DNA of 64,000 nt from Minisyncoccota bacterium (GCA_041663145.1 JBAZRG010000001.1:10467-74466), one strand, 5' to 3'; positions 4,785 through 52,030 are shown, numbered from the stretch's first letter. The notes: a model not told the origin generated them from the sequence alone. Made by a program: numbers and translations.

Positions 4785-4957
4785 CCAACATAATGTTCCA
4801 GCTAGCTTGGTGAACATTGTCCCTCAGCTCCTCGCAAGGTCACCCACTCCAAATTGCAACCATATTTGAATAGACGTAACTATTCAAATATGGGCAATTT
4901 GTTCGGGGTTCAAATCGCATTGCTCGTCGCTGACGAACAATGTTCACCAAGCTAGTG
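4785..4957. repeat. intergenic palindromic repeat element, copy 1 (terminal inverted repeats plus covarying central hairpin)
   Basis: Terminal inverted repeats ...tagcttggtgaacattgt / acaatgttcaccaagcta. Conserved core gcaaggtcacccactccaaattgcaacc ... gggcaatttgttcggggttcaaatc. Central hairpin catatttgaatag-acgtaa-ctattcaaatatg. Confidence 0.8.
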
Positions 4958-5083: not shown

Positions 5084-6922
5084 TTACTCGATGCTCAGTC
5101 TAGCCTTGTCTTTTGTCAGAAGAGAAGAGTACTTACCATGCTTGGAAAGTAGTTCATCGTGTGTTCCGCTCTCGACCAATTCTCCATTGTCCAAGACAAG
5201 TATGTTATCGGCATTTTTTGCTCGTGAGACGTGTTGTGTCACGATGATCATTGTGGTGTCTTTTTGAGCGAAGATTTTATCCATCAATCGTTCCGAAGCT
5301 TCTGGATCAAGCTTCGCATCAGGCTCATCTAGGATGAATATCGGCGTACCGCGGTATTTAGCTCGTGCCAGAGCGAGTCTTTGCTCTTCGCCTCCAGAGA
5401 ATTCCCGTCCATCGAATTCTGTGCCGATTTGAGAATCGAATCCTTTGGGGTCACCGTCGACTATGGGAGTGAATTCGGCGAATGATGCAGATTCACGTAC
5501 CTTTTCCATGTCGATGCTTTCTTCTAGTCTTGAGGACGCAATCTCCGAGCCTATAGTGCGTTCCATGATGGCAAAATTTTGCAATAACGCACAAGCTGTT
5601 TTGCTCCAAACTGTAGGTGCAATGTTGTTCAAGTTCAAATCACCTATGTGAATACTTCCGCTTGTCGGATCATAGTGCCGGAGCAAGAGTCCGATTAACG
5701 ATGATTTACCGCTACCGTTTGTCCCGACAATTGCCACTTTGGATCTGGGCCGGATCGTGAAAGATACGTTTCTTAGTACCAACACGTCTTTGTCGGGATA
5801 TGAAAACGATACATTGTTGAAATATATCGTCGGTGGACCAGTGAATTCTGGATCAACAGGGTTTACTGTCGAGAGTAGAGGTTTCAAGGCGAAATATTCT
5901 TCCTCGATCATGACCATGCCTTTGGCACTTTGCCATTGAGTCGCAATCTGCAGAACTATGTCTCTGATCGATGATTGTAGTCGTCTGGACGAACCTATAA
6001 TGACTGTGAGTGCACCCAAGTCTCCGCCAATAGAGAGTGTTCCCCAAACGGAGTGAAGGAGTACGATACTCAAACCCGCCATAGCAAAAAGGTATGCACC
6101 TAGACTTATCTGTAAGTTTTGCCAGCGTGCTTCAAGTACCGATTTGAGGACATGATCTTGATTGTCCTTGATCTGTTTCGAGAGTGTGGGAAGTTGATTG
6201 AACATCAGTCCTTGCAAGAATGATGTGGTCCCAAAGAACGCCTGTTGTAACACACTGCGACGTTTGTGATGTGGAATTAGTTCAAGCGACAGTTTCCACA
6301 TTCGACTTACGGCGGCAAACTCAGCGAAGACCATGGGTATGGACATAGCCAAGATGATGCAGACATAAATAGGATGTGTAGTTAAAAGCGAAATCCCAAA
6401 CACTACTAATCCTATCACCGCACTTAATGATTCAATCATTTCGCCTGCAAATGAGATGCGTGTACCCCAACTTTCGGGTAATTCATCGATTTTCTTTTCT
6501 ATGTCGTCATAGGTCTTGCTCCTTTTGCGTGCAATATCTAGTGAAGCACGCAGGTCATTCATTTCTTGGTTATTAGCCAACCGAAGAACATGTCTTTGTC
6601 GTTGAACTATAAATGACCGGAATTTCTGCAAGACAATCTCGATGAACAATGCCACAATAAACATCAGGACGGGCAGGAAATATCCGCCGCCAACGAACTC
6701 TTTCAATGTGATCGGGCTCTGACGGGGATTTGTTAGCTGAAGTTGTATGGAACTAATGAGCTCGCCCATGAGCAATATCATGACGTAGCCGAGAAGTGTC
6801 TGAGCAACAATTAACCCTGCAATTGTGATGGTGTCCTTGCGGTTGTTTCGGAAACAGAACGCAAATGAGTATCTCGAAGCTTTTTGAACTGTCGAGATAG
6901 CATCTAACAGACGTTTTTTCAT
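5084..6922 (-). CDS. ABC transporter, fused permease/ATP-binding (ABCB-type exporter)
   Basis: N-terminal 6-TM domain; Walker A GTNGSGKSSL; signature LSGGEEQRLALARA; Walker B ILDEPDAKLD. Confidence 0.85.
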   Translation of the reverse strand: MKKRLLDAISTVQKASRYSFAFCFRNNRKDTITIAGLIVAQTLLGYVMILLMGELISSIQLQLTNPRQSPITLKEFVGGGYFLPVLMFIVALFIEIVLQKFRSFIVQRQRHVLRLANNQEMNDLRASLDIARKRSKTYDDIEKKIDELPESWGTRISFAGEMIESLSAVIGLVVFGISLLTTHPIYVCIILAMSIPMVFAEFAAVSRMWKLSLELIPHHKRRSVLQQAFFGTTSFLQGLMFNQLPTLSKQIKDNQDHVLKSVLEARWQNLQISLGAYLFAMAGLSIVLLHSVWGTLSIGGDLGALTVIIGSSRRLQSSIRDIVLQIATQWQSAKGMVMIEEEYFALKPLLSTVNPVDPEFTGPPTIYFNNVSFSYPDKDVLVLRNVSFTIRPRSKVAIVGTNGSGKSSLIGLLLRHYDPTSGSIHIGDLNLNNIAPTVWSKTACALLQNFAIMERTIGSEIASSRLEESIDMEKVRESASFAEFTPIVDGDPKGFDSQIGTEFDGREFSGGEEQRLALARAKYRGTPIFILDEPDAKLDPEASERLMDKIFAQKDTTMIIVTQHVSRAKNADNILVLDNGELVESGTHDELLSKHGKYSSLLTKDKARLSIE

Positions 6923-7045
6923 TAACTATCCTTTTTGTTTGTGATTTGCTGAAAACTTAATTTGTCAAAGAAGCCAAGTAGTATTATATCATGCGTATAG
7001 GCATATAGTCAACTTTAGCGGGTTCAATAGCTTGGAAACACCCCA

Positions 7046-7231
7046 TCAACATAATGTGGAATAGCTCGGTGAACATTGTCCCTCAGCTCCTCGCAAGGTC
7101 ATCACTCTCAAATTGAAGCCATGTTTCAGCAGATGGAACTACTGAAACATGGGCAATTTGTTCGGGGTTCAAATCGCATTGCTCGTCGCTGACGAACAAT
7201 GTTCACCAAGCTAGTGGGAACATTATGTTGA
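7046..7231. repeat. intergenic palindromic repeat element, copy 2
   Basis: Same terminal inverted repeats and core as copy 1. Central hairpin catgtttcagcag-atggaa-ctactgaaacatg, with compensatory changes relative to copy 1. Confidence 0.8.
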
Positions 7232-7274
7232 GGTATTTATGAGTAGTTACATCTGTACTTATCCACAGTATTCT

Positions 7275-7304
7275 TTGACAGGTGAACGGCTGTTCACCTA
7301 TACT
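7275..7304 (+). promoter_or_regulatory. promoter TTGACA-N18-TATACT with a perfect 18-bp palindrome (candidate LexA/SOS operator) as spacer
   Basis: ttgaca GGTGAACggctGTTCACC tatact. The GAAC-N4-GTTC core resembles the Cheo-type SOS box. Lies upstream of lexA. Confidence 0.5.
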
Positions 7305-7361
7305 GTTATGGCAATAAGAGAGGGATCATTATTAAATAAGACTAATAATTACCACAAAAAT

Positions 7362-7565
7362 ATGAGCAAGCAACAAGTCATCAGAACTATCAGATCCGAG
7401 ATCGATAGACTCAATCGAGAGATTGATCTTCGCATCATCAAAGGCGCTTCTTACAGGCGTGAGGCGCTCCGGCACAAATTCTTGATGGCTGAGCTTGCTC
7501 GGTTGGCACCAAAGAGGTCGTGGTTCGCAAGGTCCCTCAGTTTTGCATCGATGTTTCTATTCTGA
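7362..7565 (+). CDS. hypothetical small protein (67 aa) co-oriented upstream of lexA
   Basis: In-frame ATG downstream of the promoter at 7275. Charged helical N-terminus and hydrophobic C-terminus SWFARSLSFASMFLF. The ORF-track start at 7239 overlaps the promoter and is rejected. Confidence 0.3.
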   Translation: MSKQQVIRTIRSEIDRLNREIDLRIIKGASYRREALRHKFLMAELARLAPKRSWFARSLSFASMFLF

Positions 7566-7575
7566 TTTTAAGACA

Positions 7576-8139
7576 ATGCAAAATTACAAACAAAAAATAA
7601 TAAATTTCTATAAGAGTACAAAACGAATGCCTTCGTATGCGGAGATCATGACTCTTTTGGGTTTCAAATCTAAAAATGCCGTATACAAATTAGTCAATAA
7701 ATTAGTCGGAGAAGGAATACTAGAGAAGGATTCAACGGGTCGTCTCATTCCAAATAAGCTCATAGGCGAGGTGCCTCTTCTCGGGTTAGTTGAAGCTGGA
7801 TTTCCGAGTGCAGCTGAAGAAGAATTGGTAGATACGATGAATCTCGATGACTATCTCATCGAAAACAAAGAAGCCACATATCTTCTAGAAGTAAAAGGTG
7901 ATTCCATGATAGATGCAGGCATTCAAGAAGGCGATTTGGTCATAGCTGAACGACGTAACAATCCGAAAGATGGCGATATTGTCATTGCTGAGGTTGATGG
8001 CGGTTGGACTATGAAATATTTTCGTAAAAAAGGCACTACGATATTTTTGGAACCCGCTAACAGTGCATACAAACCTATATATCCAACGACAGATCTCAAG
8101 GTCGCTGCGATTGTCAAAGGAGTTGTGAGAAAATATTAA
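7576..8139 (+). CDS. lexA: LexA repressor (S24 peptidase)
   Basis: N-terminal wHTH (SYAEIMTLLGFKSKNAVYKLVNKL); cleavage site VEAGFP; catalytic GDSM serine and TMKYF lysine. Start taken at the internal ATG. Confidence 0.8.
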   Translation: MQNYKQKIINFYKSTKRMPSYAEIMTLLGFKSKNAVYKLVNKLVGEGILEKDSTGRLIPNKLIGEVPLLGLVEAGFPSAAEEELVDTMNLDDYLIENKEATYLLEVKGDSMIDAGIQEGDLVIAERRNNPKDGDIVIAEVDGGWTMKYFRKKGTTIFLEPANSAYKPIYPTTDLKVAAIVKGVVRKY

Positions 8140-8177
8140 AATTCATCGAGTACGATCTCGATCGTGTAAACTGTTTC

Positions 8178-9515
8178 ATGCAACCACTCACGATCCATTC
8201 ATTTCCACGCGCCATACTTCATGTCGATGGAGACGCTTTTTTCGCATCATGTGAAGTTGCTAAGGATCCGACTCTTCGTGGTAAGCCGGTAGTGACAGGT
8301 CTCGAGCGTGGTATAGCATCATCTATGACTTATGAAGCCAAGATGCGTGGCGTGACTCGAGCCATGAGTTTGCGAGATATTCGGAAAATCTGTCCGGACG
8401 TCATCATTTTGCCTTCAGATTATGAGACATATAGTTTGTATTCAAAACGGATGTACGAAATAGTTCGTCGATTTACTTCTGATATTGAAGAATATAGTAT
8501 CGATGAATGTTTTGCTGATCTGACCGGCATGCGTCGACCAAATAATATGTCCTATGAGGAGATGGCTATGCGAATCAAGCACGATCTAGATACTGAGCTT
8601 GGTATGACATTTTCTGTTGGTTTATCTGTCAACAAAGTGCTCTCCAAAATCGGTTCAAAATGGAAGAAACCATCTGGCCTCACTATAATTCCTGGTTACA
8701 ATATTCATCTATATCTTTCGAAAACTCCTGTAGAAAAGATTTGGGGTATTGGTCCAAATACATCTGCATATCTCAATAAATATGGCATCAAGACAGCTTT
8801 AGATTTTGCAATTAGAGATAAATATTGGGTCAGATCCAATCTATCAAAACCGTTTCAAGAGATTCATTCTGAATTGAATGGCAGTTTCGTATATCCACTT
8901 ACGCTTGGCGAAAAACATGACTATACATCTATAAGCAAAACAAAGACTTTTACTCCACCTTCTAGTGATGCGAAGTTTGTATTTGCTGAACTATCAAAGA
9001 ATATTGAAAATGCTTGCATCAAGCTACGCCGACATGATCTATTTGCAAAGAAATTTGCTTTTTTTATTAAGAATCAAGAATTCCGATATTCAGGTTTGGA
9101 AATCAATCTAAATGTAGGAGTTAGAACACCAGAACAAATACTATCCTTGGCTCGTGAAAGATTTGGGGAGGTTTTCAATAAAGGATTTTTGTATAGATCT
9201 ACAGGAGTTATTTTGATGAACCTTATTCATGATGATGTTTCAACTCTCGATCTCTTTGGTGATTCTGCATTATTAGCAAAGACAAATAAGATCTACGAAG
9301 CAGTCGATCGGATCGATCGAAAATATGGCAAGCATACGATATTTTTAGGTTCATCATTTCGTGCTATCAAAAAACCAATAGCCGAGAGTATGTCTTCGTC
9401 TAAGACGGATTCAAGCAATAGTCGTAATTGTATAACCGAGCGTCGCAACCATCTTCTCAAAGGTGAAACAGCAAGAAAACGTCTTGGAATTCCATTTTTA
9501 GGGATAACAATGTGA
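8178..9515 (+). CDS. dinB: Y-family DNA polymerase (DinB/UmuC-like)
   Basis: ILHVDGDAFFASCE palm motif at the N-terminus; lies immediately downstream of lexA. Confidence 0.8.
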   Translation: MQPLTIHSFPRAILHVDGDAFFASCEVAKDPTLRGKPVVTGLERGIASSMTYEAKMRGVTRAMSLRDIRKICPDVIILPSDYETYSLYSKRMYEIVRRFTSDIEEYSIDECFADLTGMRRPNNMSYEEMAMRIKHDLDTELGMTFSVGLSVNKVLSKIGSKWKKPSGLTIIPGYNIHLYLSKTPVEKIWGIGPNTSAYLNKYGIKTALDFAIRDKYWVRSNLSKPFQEIHSELNGSFVYPLTLGEKHDYTSISKTKTFTPPSSDAKFVFAELSKNIENACIKLRRHDLFAKKFAFFIKNQEFRYSGLEINLNVGVRTPEQILSLARERFGEVFNKGFLYRSTGVILMNLIHDDVSTLDLFGDSALLAKTNKIYEAVDRIDRKYGKHTIFLGSSFRAIKKPIAESMSSSKTDSSNSRNCITERRNHLLKGETARKRLGIPFLGITM

Positions 9516-18940: not shown

Positions 18941-19096
18941 GAGAGCTCGGTGAACATTGTTCCGAAACGACTCGCAATGTGATTTGAACCCCGAACAAAT
19001 TGCCCATATATGAGTAGCTCCGTCTACTCATATATGGTTGCAATTTGGAGTGGGTGACCTTGCGAGTCGTTTCGGAACAATGTTCACCGAGCTCTG
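18941..19096. repeat. intergenic palindromic repeat element, copy 3 (inverted orientation)
   Basis: Terminal inverted repeats gagctcggtgaacattgttccgaaac / gtttcggaacaatgttcaccgagctc. Reverse-complement core identical to the other copies. Central hairpin catatatgagtag-ctccgt-ctactcatatatg. Confidence 0.8.
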
Positions 19097-43569: not shown

Positions 43570-44244
43570 TCACTGCCTGTTTCGAAGCGCATTCCTTATC
43601 GTCTCTCCATCAACATATTCTAGTTCGGCGCCGGTCGAAAGTCCTCTTCCGAGGATCGATATTTTCACAAGGGGAGACGCATCATTGGCAGAATTGGTTT
43701 TGAGGATTCTTTCTAAACCTTCCTTTACAATATCTGTAGTATGTTCACCATCGCTAGTCGTATTCAGAGACAAAATGATCTCAGTAAATGGTGTTTGTTT
43801 GTCGTTTGCGATCGTGATTTTTTCCAATAAAGTTTTTAGACGTATGCGTTTCTCCGGTTCTTTATCTAGTACTGGTACCGTACCACCTAATATGAAATAC
43901 AAACCGTTATACGCTCCGCTTTTTTCAACTGTTTCAAAATCCGAATCTCGCGCCACAATCATAAGGGTCTTTCTATCACGAGACATATCAGAGCAAATAG
44001 AACATGTAGCTGAACTGTCGCTAATAGAATGTGATAAAGATTTTGATTTGGAGGAATTGGTAAAGAAACGGTGACAACTCATGCACTCAGCGGTGCTTTT
44101 CTTGACTTCATCCACAAGTTCGATGAATTCTTTTATATAAGCTGGAGATTTGCTCTGGAGATAATAAACAAAACGTTTGGCTTGTCGTGGGCCAATACCA
44201 GGGAAGTGTCGGAAGATTTCCTCAAGTCGATTTAGATTGTCCAT
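43570..44244 (-). CDS. recR: recombination protein RecR
   Basis: HhH motif FPGIGPRQAKRF, C4 zinc finger CMSCHRF...CSIC and Toprim domain. Start taken at the internal ATG. Confidence 0.85.
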   Translation of the reverse strand: MDNLNRLEEIFRHFPGIGPRQAKRFVYYLQSKSPAYIKEFIELVDEVKKSTAECMSCHRFFTNSSKSKSLSHSISDSSATCSICSDMSRDRKTLMIVARDSDFETVEKSGAYNGLYFILGGTVPVLDKEPEKRIRLKTLLEKITIANDKQTPFTEIILSLNTTSDGEHTTDIVKEGLERILKTNSANDASPLVKISILGRGLSTGAELEYVDGETIRNALRNRQ

Positions 44245-44245
44245 A

Positions 44246-45628
44246 TTATTCAACCTTATCAAAACCGCCGAAATCCGCTTTGTCGATACTGAGAAATGTT
44301 GCTTTCTTGCTATCGAAGAAGAGCTTGACCGTACCTGTCGGACCATTTCTGTGTTTCTCGATCAATATTTCCGCTTCTTCTTTTTTGCCGCCCTGATCCT
44401 GATCGGCTTCGCGATGGATGAACATCACAACGTCAGCATCCTGTTCGATGGAACCGGAATCACGCAAGTCGGAGAGACGAGGTCTGCCACCGCGTTGTTC
44501 GACCGCTCTCGATAGCTGTGAGAGAGCGAGGACTGGCACTTCGAGTTCACGAGCCATGTTTTTGAGCGAGCGTGAGATCTCCGTGACCTGCTGAACGAGA
44601 TTGTCATTGCCCCGGGTCTGAGTCGGTACCATGAGCTGTAGATAGTCGACGACGATGAGACCTAGACCTTTTTCATTTTTCAATCGTCGAGCTACGGCAC
44701 GCATCTTTAGGATATTGTTGCCTGGTTGATCGTCTATGAATATCGGCGCCTCGGAAAGGCGGGCGATAGACTCACCGATAGCCTTGAAGTCGCCTTCGAC
44801 TGATAGATTGTGACCAGTGCGAATCTTCCAAGCATCGACTTGGGATTCGGCAGAAAGCATACGATCGACTAGTTGCTGTGAGCTCATTTCCAGAGAAAAG
44901 ATAGCAACTGGAACTTTGTGATTGACCGATGCTTTTCTGGCTATGTCGAGAGCTAGGGAAGTTTTTCCCATAGATGGTCTAGCCGCCAATATTATGAGAT
45001 CAGACTTCTGGAATCCAGCCAGCTTATTGTCGAGTTCGGGAAAACCAGTATGAACACCACGAATCTCGTCTTTGGTTTTGTGAAGATGATCGAGACGCTC
45101 CCACGCTTCATTCAATGTATCTTTAAGTTGGATGAATTTGTGCGAGCCGGTTTTATTGGTCACCGCATAGAGGGATTTTTCGGCATTTTCCAGAATATCG
45201 TGCAACTCGGACTCTTCATCGTAGCCGAGTCCGGTGATATTTTCGGCTGCCCGCAATAGTTCGCGCATAACATGTTTCTTTTCGACGATCTCGGCATAAT
45301 GGTTTACATTGGTCGATGATGGAACGGTGTTGATGAGTTCGGTTAGGAAAGCCATACCGCCCGACTGATCCAATTCATTTTTTTCCTTGAGTCTGGCTGA
45401 GACAGTGAGAACGTCTATCGGATTATTTTTAGTGTGCAGATCGAGTATGGATTGCCAGATCATTCGGTGCTGATTTGAATAAAATGACTGCTCCCCGACA
45501 ATATCCATAATATCGTGCATCGCTTCACCGCGGATCATTATGGATCCGAGCAATGCTTTTTCCGCCTCAATGCTATGAGGCGGTATTTTCAAATCTTTAG
45601 TTTTGAAATATGGGGAAGCGGTATTCAC
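44246..45628 (-). CDS. dnaB: replicative DNA helicase
   Basis: N-terminal PPHSIEAEKALLGSIM; Walker A ARPSMGKTSLAL; IVVDYLQLM motif. Confidence 0.9.
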   Translation of the reverse strand: MNTASPYFKTKDLKIPPHSIEAEKALLGSIMIRGEAMHDIMDIVGEQSFYSNQHRMIWQSILDLHTKNNPIDVLTVSARLKEKNELDQSGGMAFLTELINTVPSSTNVNHYAEIVEKKHVMRELLRAAENITGLGYDEESELHDILENAEKSLYAVTNKTGSHKFIQLKDTLNEAWERLDHLHKTKDEIRGVHTGFPELDNKLAGFQKSDLIILAARPSMGKTSLALDIARKASVNHKVPVAIFSLEMSSQQLVDRMLSAESQVDAWKIRTGHNLSVEGDFKAIGESIARLSEAPIFIDDQPGNNILKMRAVARRLKNEKGLGLIVVDYLQLMVPTQTRGNDNLVQQVTEISRSLKNMARELEVPVLALSQLSRAVEQRGGRPRLSDLRDSGSIEQDADVVMFIHREADQDQGGKKEEAEILIEKHRNGPTGTVKLFFDSKKATFLSIDKADFGGFDKVE

Positions 45629-51246: not shown

Positions 51247-51981
51247 ATGAATAATAAATTCTTATCAGCTCCATTTGTATTACCGGCACTCGTTATAGGT
51301 CTAGCTATATTGTTGTCATCCTTTGTTGGAGCTGCAACTTTCCTCAAGGCTCGCAGTCTCGATGACGCTCTTTCGGTAACGGGTTCTGCAAAGATGCGCG
51401 TAACTGCTGACTCCGTCAAATGGAGCTTCAATATTTCGAGAAGAGTCACTGAATACACTCTTCAGAGCGGATATTCCAATATGGCCAAAGATCTTACTGC
51501 TGTTAAAAATTTTCTCAGCCAGAACGGTCTCAAAGAAGAACAGATAACCATTGCGCCAATATACATGGAAGAGATGTACAAGGATCCAAATTCATCCGGA
51601 CCCAGAGAGATCACTCTTCGTCAGAGCATAATGGTCCAATCGACCGATGTAGCGGGAATCACAAGTCTGGCAAAAAGTACTGAGATATTGACTACAACAG
51701 GCATTTTTCTTTCATCATTTTCTCCAGAATATTTCTATTCCAAACTCGCCGAGCTTCGCGTGAGTCTGCTCTCTGATGCAATAAAAGACGCAAAAGCCAG
51801 AGCAAATGAGATTGCGAAAAGTAGTGGACAATCGGTGGGAAGTCTCAAGTCCGCGTCGAGCGGTGTCGTACAGGTACTCGCTCCGAATAGTGTCGAAGTA
51901 GATAGTTATGGATCATACGATACTTCATCTATTGAAAAGGACGTCATGGTTACAGTTAGGGCGGTATTCTTTGTGAAATAA
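51247..51981 (+). CDS. SIMPL/DUF541-family periplasmic protein (YggE-like)
   Basis: Signal anchor, then VTGSAKMRVTADSVKWSFNISRRV...VRAVFFVK, typical of the SIMPL domain. Confidence 0.5.
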   Translation: MNNKFLSAPFVLPALVIGLAILLSSFVGAATFLKARSLDDALSVTGSAKMRVTADSVKWSFNISRRVTEYTLQSGYSNMAKDLTAVKNFLSQNGLKEEQITIAPIYMEEMYKDPNSSGPREITLRQSIMVQSTDVAGITSLAKSTEILTTTGIFLSSFSPEYFYSKLAELRVSLLSDAIKDAKARANEIAKSSGQSVGSLKSASSGVVQVLAPNSVEVDSYGSYDTSSIEKDVMVTVRAVFFVK

Positions 51982-51988
51982 AAATAAT

Positions 51989-52030
51989 GTGACCTTGCGA
52001 GTTGTGTCGGAACAATGTTCACCGAGCTCA
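51989..52030. repeat. solo end fragment of the palindromic repeat element (partial copy 5)
   Basis: gtgaccttgcgagttgtgtcggaacaatgttcaccgagctca matches the right ~42 nt of copy 3, but no core or hairpin follows. Confidence 0.65.

Follow-up and report, generated by a model that had tools for sequence, protein, structure and literature searches.

The DNA analysed here is a 64-kb stretch (the window, a term that refers throughout to the whole stretch), and the host lineage of the site that it carries is Candidatus Paceibacterota (Patescibacteria). Three genes follow one another on the plus strand: a small ORF encoding a protein of 67 amino acids, lexA, and a gene for a Y-family translesion polymerase of the Pol IV/DinB-like type (Table 1). 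A scan of the 7362–9515 region found no plus-strand terminator across the small ORF, lexA and the polymerase.

Table 1. Features of the lexA locus and copies of the neighbouring repeat family, with positions counted from the first letter of the window.
Feature	Position	Strand	Basis or remark
Full repeat copies	4803–4954, 7062–7213, 18943–19094 (inverted), 61765–61916		All approximate
Repeat copy 2 (~150 bp, hairpin-forming)	7062–7213	.	Between the SOS promoter and the divergent ABC-transporter promoter
TTATCCACA, DnaA-box consensus match	7259–7267	+	7 nt upstream of the −35 hexamer, centred near −48
−35 hexamer TTGACA, SOS operon promoter	7275–7280	+	Consensus promoter scan
LexA operator (predicted)	7281–7298	.	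Arms GGTGAAC (7281–7287) and GTTCACC (7292–7298); variable 4-bp centre GGCT
−10 hexamer TATACT	7299–7304	+	Consensus promoter scan
Small ORF (67 aa), first operon gene	7362–7565	+	tblastn, homologue alignment
lexA	7576–8139	+	PF00717 (6e-28); TIGR00498 (128.6 bits)
Y-family translesion polymerase (Pol IV/DinB-like), third operon gene	8178–9515	+	IMS, IMS_HHH and IMS_C domains
Partial repeat copy	51923–52029

The promoter of the operon was located by a consensus promoter scan, in which TTGACA, an 18-nt spacer and TATACT give 11 of 12 matches to a sigma-70-type promoter. The entire spacer between the −35 and −10 hexamers is occupied by an inverted repeat. Read directly from the sequence, this dyad, GGTGAACGGCTGTTCACC (GGTGAAC-GGCT-GTTCACC), has a 7-N4-7 architecture in which 16 of the 18 positions pair, and it contains a GAAC-N4-GTTC core with an exact 4-bp spacing (GAACGGCTGTTC, at 7284–7295). 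Both the site and the promoter geometry are direct observations. Transcription would start near 7311, and the leader in the window comprises about 50 nt. On the other side of the locus, a promoter scan places a divergent ABC-transporter promoter at 7012–6983.

A first-pass annotation of this DNA had already noted that TTGACA and TATACT are separated by exactly this inverted repeat, that its GAAC-N4-GTTC core has the Cheo-box architecture, and that the site lies upstream of a small ORF and lexA (7576). Each of these statements holds: the first is confirmed by the sequence and the promoter scan (7275–7304), the second by the agreement of the core with the LexA motif described in PMC4951493, and the third by ORF, domain and lexA model matches. 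The description of the site as a perfect 18-bp palindrome has to be corrected, since full complementarity is confined to the 7-bp arms and the centre GGCT, left unpaired, is not self-complementary (G8 against T11).

The lexA product combines a winged-helix DNA-binding domain with an S24 self-cleaving peptidase domain, and its score clears the equivalog cut-off of the TIGR00498 lexA model (110.95 bits). The match to the LexA_DNA_bind Pfam family is weak (residues 13–53, 21.2 bits, below the gathering score of 23.7). The Ala-Gly pair, the Ser (in KGDSM) and the Lys (in TMKYF) align with A84-G85, S119 and K156 of E. coli LexA, and the catalytic apparatus is intact in this alignment. The polymerase matches the Pol IV NCBIfam models at 6e-63, below their equivalog cut-offs.

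The small ORF has a homologue, detected by tblastn, in 78 of the 80 related loci described in the next section, always directly 3´ of the dyad (hereafter also the box). The homologues form 41 clusters, every one of them named 'hypothetical', and their alignment contains 16 invariant columns. No Pfam or NCBIfam family was found for the small protein, even at permissive E-values. Its AlphaFold2 model (mean pLDDT 83) is a helical hairpin with a floppy hydrophobic/aromatic C-terminal helix, and a Foldseek comparison with the PDB returned generic helical hairpins only, with E-values above 1. An 85-aa version of the ORF is annotated in the database (WC648_00090), starting at ATG 7308, 3 nt past the −10 hexamer; most homologues have 60–68 residues, and this start is probably too far upstream. 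No tRNA was found in a search of the window, and Rfam gave no match at gathering thresholds in the window, with sub-threshold noise around 6920–7380.

Conservation of the dyad and extent of the regulon

Within the window, the bare GAAC-N4-GTTC core is weakly enriched (three occurrences against 0.97 expected, a number reached by 6 of 100 shuffles). The question of whether the dyad is more than a chance occurrence is decided by its conservation. The comparison was based on 80 loci from other species, picked solely by the similarity of their LexA to that of the window (66–85% identity). The dyad GGTGAAC-N4-GTTCAC[CT], allowing two mismatches at most in the arms and a distance of up to 1 kb upstream of lexA, is present in 74 of these loci, with 53 perfect copies, and the spacing of the core is identical in all 74 orthologous sites. 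As for the six loci without a scored dyad, four include less than 360 bp of sequence ahead of lexA and the other two are L006 and L078. In L006, the place where the promoter and operator should be is masked exactly by a run of N (2478–2596), and in L078 the dyad upstream of lexA is degenerate. The 74 loci counted as informative all carry the dyad in the same promoter spacer, and in the relatives it is invariably flanked by a −35-like hexamer on one side and a −10-like hexamer on the other.

When 75 promoters are aligned on the dyad, the information content reaches 1.8–2.0 bits per position in the arms and 0.3–0.6 bits in the central 4 bp. In the same alignment, the −35 and −10 hexamers hold 0.7–1.8 bits and all other flanks about 0–0.1 bits. 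Conserved arms around a free centre are the footprint that a dimer contacting two half-sites a fixed distance apart would be expected to leave. This pattern also weighs on the possibility that the dyad arose by chance as a palindrome, or serves as a structural element such as a hairpin or a terminator, with no protein partner, which is discussed below.

The −35 hexamer is kept in the relatives as TTGACA, TTGACG or (C)TTGCA, and the aligned promoters conserve a TATAMT sequence at −10 with 1.5–1.8 bits. About 12 loci from genomes and about 10 from metagenomes (L002, L024, L030, L062, L063 and L073 among them) have the ATG of the small ORF 6–7 nt past the −10 hexamer. Such a distance fits leaderless mRNAs and, in consequence, supports the promoter assignment independently. 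The promoter geometry, including the leaderless starts, is pinned down in this way in organisms with almost no experimental genetics.

A position-specific scoring matrix (PSSM) was built from the 74 orthologous promoters and applied to the 64-kb window with a threshold of at least 10 bits. A single site was retrieved, 7281–7298, scoring 27 bits, in comparison with 0.03 sites per shuffle. Furthermore, a gene-blind scan of metagenomes with the pattern GGTGAACNNNNGTTCACYTATA yielded at least 121 instances in at least 120 loci. Among the matches listed, 107 of the 121 instances have a homologue of the small ORF, lexA or the polymerase within 3 kb downstream on the same strand, and the identity of lexA to that of the window is as low as 44%. 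The remaining 14 instances, also among the matches listed, include seven with less than 150 nt of downstream sequence; the other seven precede a phage terminase small subunit (two), a restriction-modification-like protein (one) and a 588-aa protein (one), or appear chance-like (three). The clade-wide conservation and the association with the genes of the lexA operon are, again, direct observations. The dyad is almost a diagnostic tag of lexA-operon promoters in the clade, and the signature of 18–22 nt is specific enough to retrieve the SOS promoters of the clade from metagenomes, as indicated by the proportion given above for the matches listed.

Some of the exceptions can be described further. 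A full LexA-box promoter is found before the phage terminase small subunit in L154 and L185, and before the 588-aa protein, with no function assigned, in L132. In L153 the box, at reverse-strand position 225, precedes a restriction-modification-like protein of 615 aa (read from the translation), and TTATCCACA is also present. A scan of viral contigs with the operator and −10 pattern returned three matches, none of them with a lexA-like context.

The box is also found with the genes of the operon when these are separated. L024 and L189 have 2.7 kb between the small ORF and lexA, with a full promoter module at each of the two genes. In L078 and L221 it is the polymerase that is separated from lexA, and a box of its own immediately precedes a TATAAT there. 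Moreover, at least 31 metagenome promoters have the lexA start less than 130 nt past the box, leaving no room for the small ORF. The box can precede lexA, the small ORF or the polymerase alone, which indicates that the LexA regulon travels with the box and not with any single gene.

In the window, the PSSM detected no LexA box at uvrB (62326 to the window end), recR (43570–44346) or dnaB (44246–45628). The lack of a box at these repair and replication genes points to a very small SOS regulon. A search for recA, using an E. coli RecA query, gave no match in the window or in the related sequences examined. The SOS regulon looks minimal, comprising the small protein, LexA and one translesion polymerase. 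The earlier expectation that the motif would accompany other DNA-damage genes is, as a result, upheld in part: the polymerases split from lexA own a box, but no box was found at uvrB, recR or dnaB. The SOS circuit retained by this Patescibacteria lineage is very small, though functional-looking.

The predicted LexA operator and alternative readings

GGTGAAC-N4-GTTCACC at 7281–7298 is very probably the operator of the LexA encoded 280 bp downstream. The first-pass annotation had proposed an SOS operator responsible for lexA autoregulation, and this proposal is now strongly supported, at the level of sequence comparison, by footprinting across the loci of the relatives, by the gene-blind scan and by the boxes at relocated genes. 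We infer that LexA physically binds the site, that it represses the promoter and that the operon is induced by damage. A LexA dimer would grip both arms of the dyad and, as the dyad fills the spacer between −35 and −10, bound LexA would exclude RNA polymerase. The three-gene operon (67-aa protein, lexA and Y-family polymerase) would be kept off by LexA in this manner. When DNA is damaged, RecA should stimulate LexA to cleave itself at the Ala-Gly bond, through the Ser/Lys dyad, and so free the promoter, which fresh LexA would then reset, in a cycle of negative autoregulation.

The window also harbours a family of repeats, in four full copies and a partial one (Table 1), whose ends resemble the operator. 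Each copy folds into one long hairpin (DNA z from −4.9 to −16), and the copies differ by paired, compensatory substitutions in the apical and basal stems, so that pairing seems to have been selected. No target-site duplication is evident at the repeat copies. Copy 2 ends at 7207 (7213 if the outer AAGCTA is included), which is 62–68 bp upstream of the −35 hexamer and 68–74 bp upstream of the dyad, instead of the distance of ~45 bp that had been given before. Another copy lies about 415 bp upstream of uvrB. The ~390 bp between that copy and uvrB (61940–62325) contain no convincing ORF and hold a terminator-like hairpin with a T-run at about 62205–62232; this gap could be a small RNA gene, with a sub-threshold Rfam match (18.5 bits, E 0.43). 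A scan of viral contigs with a 15-mer from the repeat end gave 46 single matches, at chance level, and no paired ends.

The terminal inverted repeat of the family, GAGCTCGGTGAACATTGT, contains GGTGAAC, as had been noticed previously and is borne out by the sequence. Three of the four full copies have GGTGAAC/GTTCACC at each terminus, and the partial copy has it at the one end that it retains, with the relative orientation seen in the operator. Counting all the occurrences of GGTGAAC in the window, seven belong to the repeats, two to the operator and eight remain, against 5.2 expected window-wide; all the excess is thus accounted for by the repeats and the operator. The chance that an 18-nt terminal repeat holds GGTGAAC in either orientation was estimated at about 1e-3 from the base composition of the window, so the overlap exceeds chance by this estimate, but it was noticed post hoc.

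It could be proposed from this overlap that the operator and the repeat ends are related, in that LexA binds half-sites within the repeats, that the operator is a collapsed repeat, or that the repeat derives from an SOS operator. The exact 7-mer in the same relative orientation and the proximity of two copies to the operator and to uvrB would agree with such a relationship. However, the shared identity amounts to 7 nt only, a second half-site at the N4 spacing is missing from every repeat end, and no PSSM match of at least 10 bits is found in any repeat. In addition, the copy at 61771–61910 carries GGTGAAT/ATTCACC, preserving the hairpin and losing the C of GAAC that is present in 75 of 75 operators. 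The distribution of both elements is also different: in 1.2 Mb of DNA from related Patescibacteria, one of them with a LexA 85% identical to that of the window, nhmmer found no member of the repeat family, whereas more than 180 distinct promoters in the same DNA, among the matches listed, carry the operator. An old, clade-wide operator cannot derive from a repeat found in the window alone. The earlier suggestion of LexA half-sites within the repeats, or of an origin of the repeats in an SOS-regulated region, finds no support in these data; a relationship of any of these kinds is very unlikely, and the resemblance of 7 nt between operator and repeat is probably a coincidence.

A second alternative accepts the dyad as an operator and attributes it to another dimeric regulator, either the 67-aa protein or an unlinked helix-turn-helix repressor, with a coincidental match to the LexA core. 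The position of the small ORF immediately 3´ of the box in nearly all the related loci would be compatible with the small protein as the binder, and binding by LexA is itself a prediction. Nevertheless, the box also fronts lexA alone (in the metagenome promoters, at least 31, mentioned above) and lone polymerases (L078 and L221); it follows the LexA regulon and not the small ORF, which argues against the small protein as the binder. The plain helical hairpin predicted for this protein, with no match to a DNA-binding family, also disagrees with such a role. Furthermore, the core of the dyad is identical to the LexA motif that has been proven by experiment in Gram-positive bacteria (PMC4951493). 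It is highly improbable, on this evidence, that a regulator other than LexA is the cognate one.

Finally, the weak enrichment of the bare core in the window would be what a chance palindrome or a structural element without a protein partner predicts, but this reading is effectively refuted by the pattern of conservation, with near-invariant arms and a variable spacer and flanks across about 180 distinct promoters among the matches listed, and the dyad precedes the predicted transcription start, which excludes a role as an RNA hairpin.

A DnaA-box match upstream of the −35 hexamer

Besides the LexA dyad, the promoter carries a candidate for a second regulatory site, TTATCCACA, a perfect match to the DnaA-box consensus TTATNCACA, or TT(A/T)TNCACA, and the single perfect copy in the window. 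No further module of TTATCCACA and a −35 hexamer was found in the window beyond the lexA promoter. With one mismatch at most, the element is present in the same orientation in 72 of the 75 aligned promoters, and in 144 of 184 non-identical LexA-box promoters among the matches listed, over a background of 0.7% per 45 nt. It is found in 63 of 66 small-ORF promoters and in 13 of 31 promoters directly before lexA, among the matches listed. The strand is the same in all promoters but one, and the gap to the LexA box, among the matches listed, is 12–15 nt in 123 promoters, 23–25 nt in 14 and 7 nt in 5. The element has an extended form, AGTTATCCACAG, with flanks at background information content. In 1.23 Mb of Patescibacteria DNA, 117 perfect copies of TTATCCACA were counted at LexA promoters and 28 elsewhere, with 13 expected overall, and no clusters of it that would mark an origin were found.

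In the relatives, most of the variation affects two positions at which the classical DnaA consensus is itself degenerate, position 3 (A>T) and position 5 (any base). A change from A to C at position 7, in 15 cases, is outside this consensus, and the commonest variant, TTATCCCCA, does not fit the classical degeneracy of the DnaA box.

It has been described that the E. coli uvrB, recN and dinJ promoters are co-regulated by LexA and DnaA (PMC6015884), which provides a precedent for reading TTATCCACA as a DnaA site. Those promoters have several boxes, some of them overlapping, and DnaA represses them (PMC6015884), whereas the Paceibacteria promoter has a single perfect box at a fixed offset, near −48, where an activator would more typically bind. 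The literature search found no report tying DnaA boxes to Patescibacteria. The odds that DnaA binds TTATCCACA here are roughly even, and the conservation of the element upstream of the SOS promoter suggests that DnaA may co-regulate the operon.

Taking these elements together, Paceibacteria could possess a composite module consisting of AGTTATCCACAG, a gap of about 7 nt, the −35 hexamer, the LexA dyad and the −10 hexamer, by which DnaA, acting from about −48, and LexA, from the spacer, would jointly control the minimal regulon, whose leading and most constant product, the 67-aa protein, possibly acts as the damage checkpoint effector of the clade. This proposal is tentative and more doubtful than probable. 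If true, the module would couple replication-initiation status and DNA damage at one promoter in ultra-small genomes. Interest centres on the composite promoter module and on the 67-aa protein, both of them candidate regulatory partners in Paceibacteria.

Comparison with known LexA systems

In Firmicutes and Actinobacteria, experiments have established GAAC-N4-GTTC as the motif recognised by LexA; the same source reports it for Gallionellales and variants of it for Cyanobacteria and Chloroflexi (PMC4951493). Taken by itself, the site in the window would be a classic Gram-positive-type lexA operator subject to autoregulation, to all appearances an ordinary switch, in a Patescibacteria host. Like the Gram-positive SOS box (Cheo or DinR box), it shows the common core, the 4-bp spacer, the overlap with promoters, including that of lexA, and a canonical self-cleaving LexA. 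It differs from the Gram-positive box in its longer arms, GGTGAAC/GTTCAC[CT], in the placement of a single box exactly in the −35/−10 spacer and in an apparently minimal regulon.

The SOS box has an extended consensus in B. subtilis, CGAACRNRYGTTYC (CGAAC...GTTCG), and in mycobacteria, TCGAAC-N4-GTTCGA. The flanks of the present site depart from that extended consensus, with GTGAAC...GTTCAC in their place. All 75 sites have T/A at the positions adjoining the core, which defines a clade-specific variant of the extended motif.

In Verrucomicrobia, the LexA motif is TGTTC-N4-GAACA and is located in the lexA, recA and imuA promoters (PMC4951493). Both motifs share the same tetranucleotides and the 4-bp spacing, but their half-sites are inverted with respect to each other (GTTC...GAAC in Verrucomicrobia, GAAC...GTTC here).

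The SOS network of Patescibacteria, with its LexA regulon, was the subject of a comparative-genomics study by Sanchez-Osuna, Barbe and Erill (2017, Environ Microbiol 19:3465). A passage of PMC7739468 cites this study (ref. 52) among the cases in which LexA evolved the recognition of direct repeats, and PMC8565304 includes it as ref. 9. To judge from that passage, the motif published for the superphylum may differ from the inverted repeat described here.

Small effectors induced by the SOS response, such as SulA, YneA, SidA/DidA, ChiZ and DinI, are short, controlled by LexA and encoded beside or with lexA. The 67-aa protein has no sequence, family or fold match to them, but resembles them in its size and in its predicted control by LexA.
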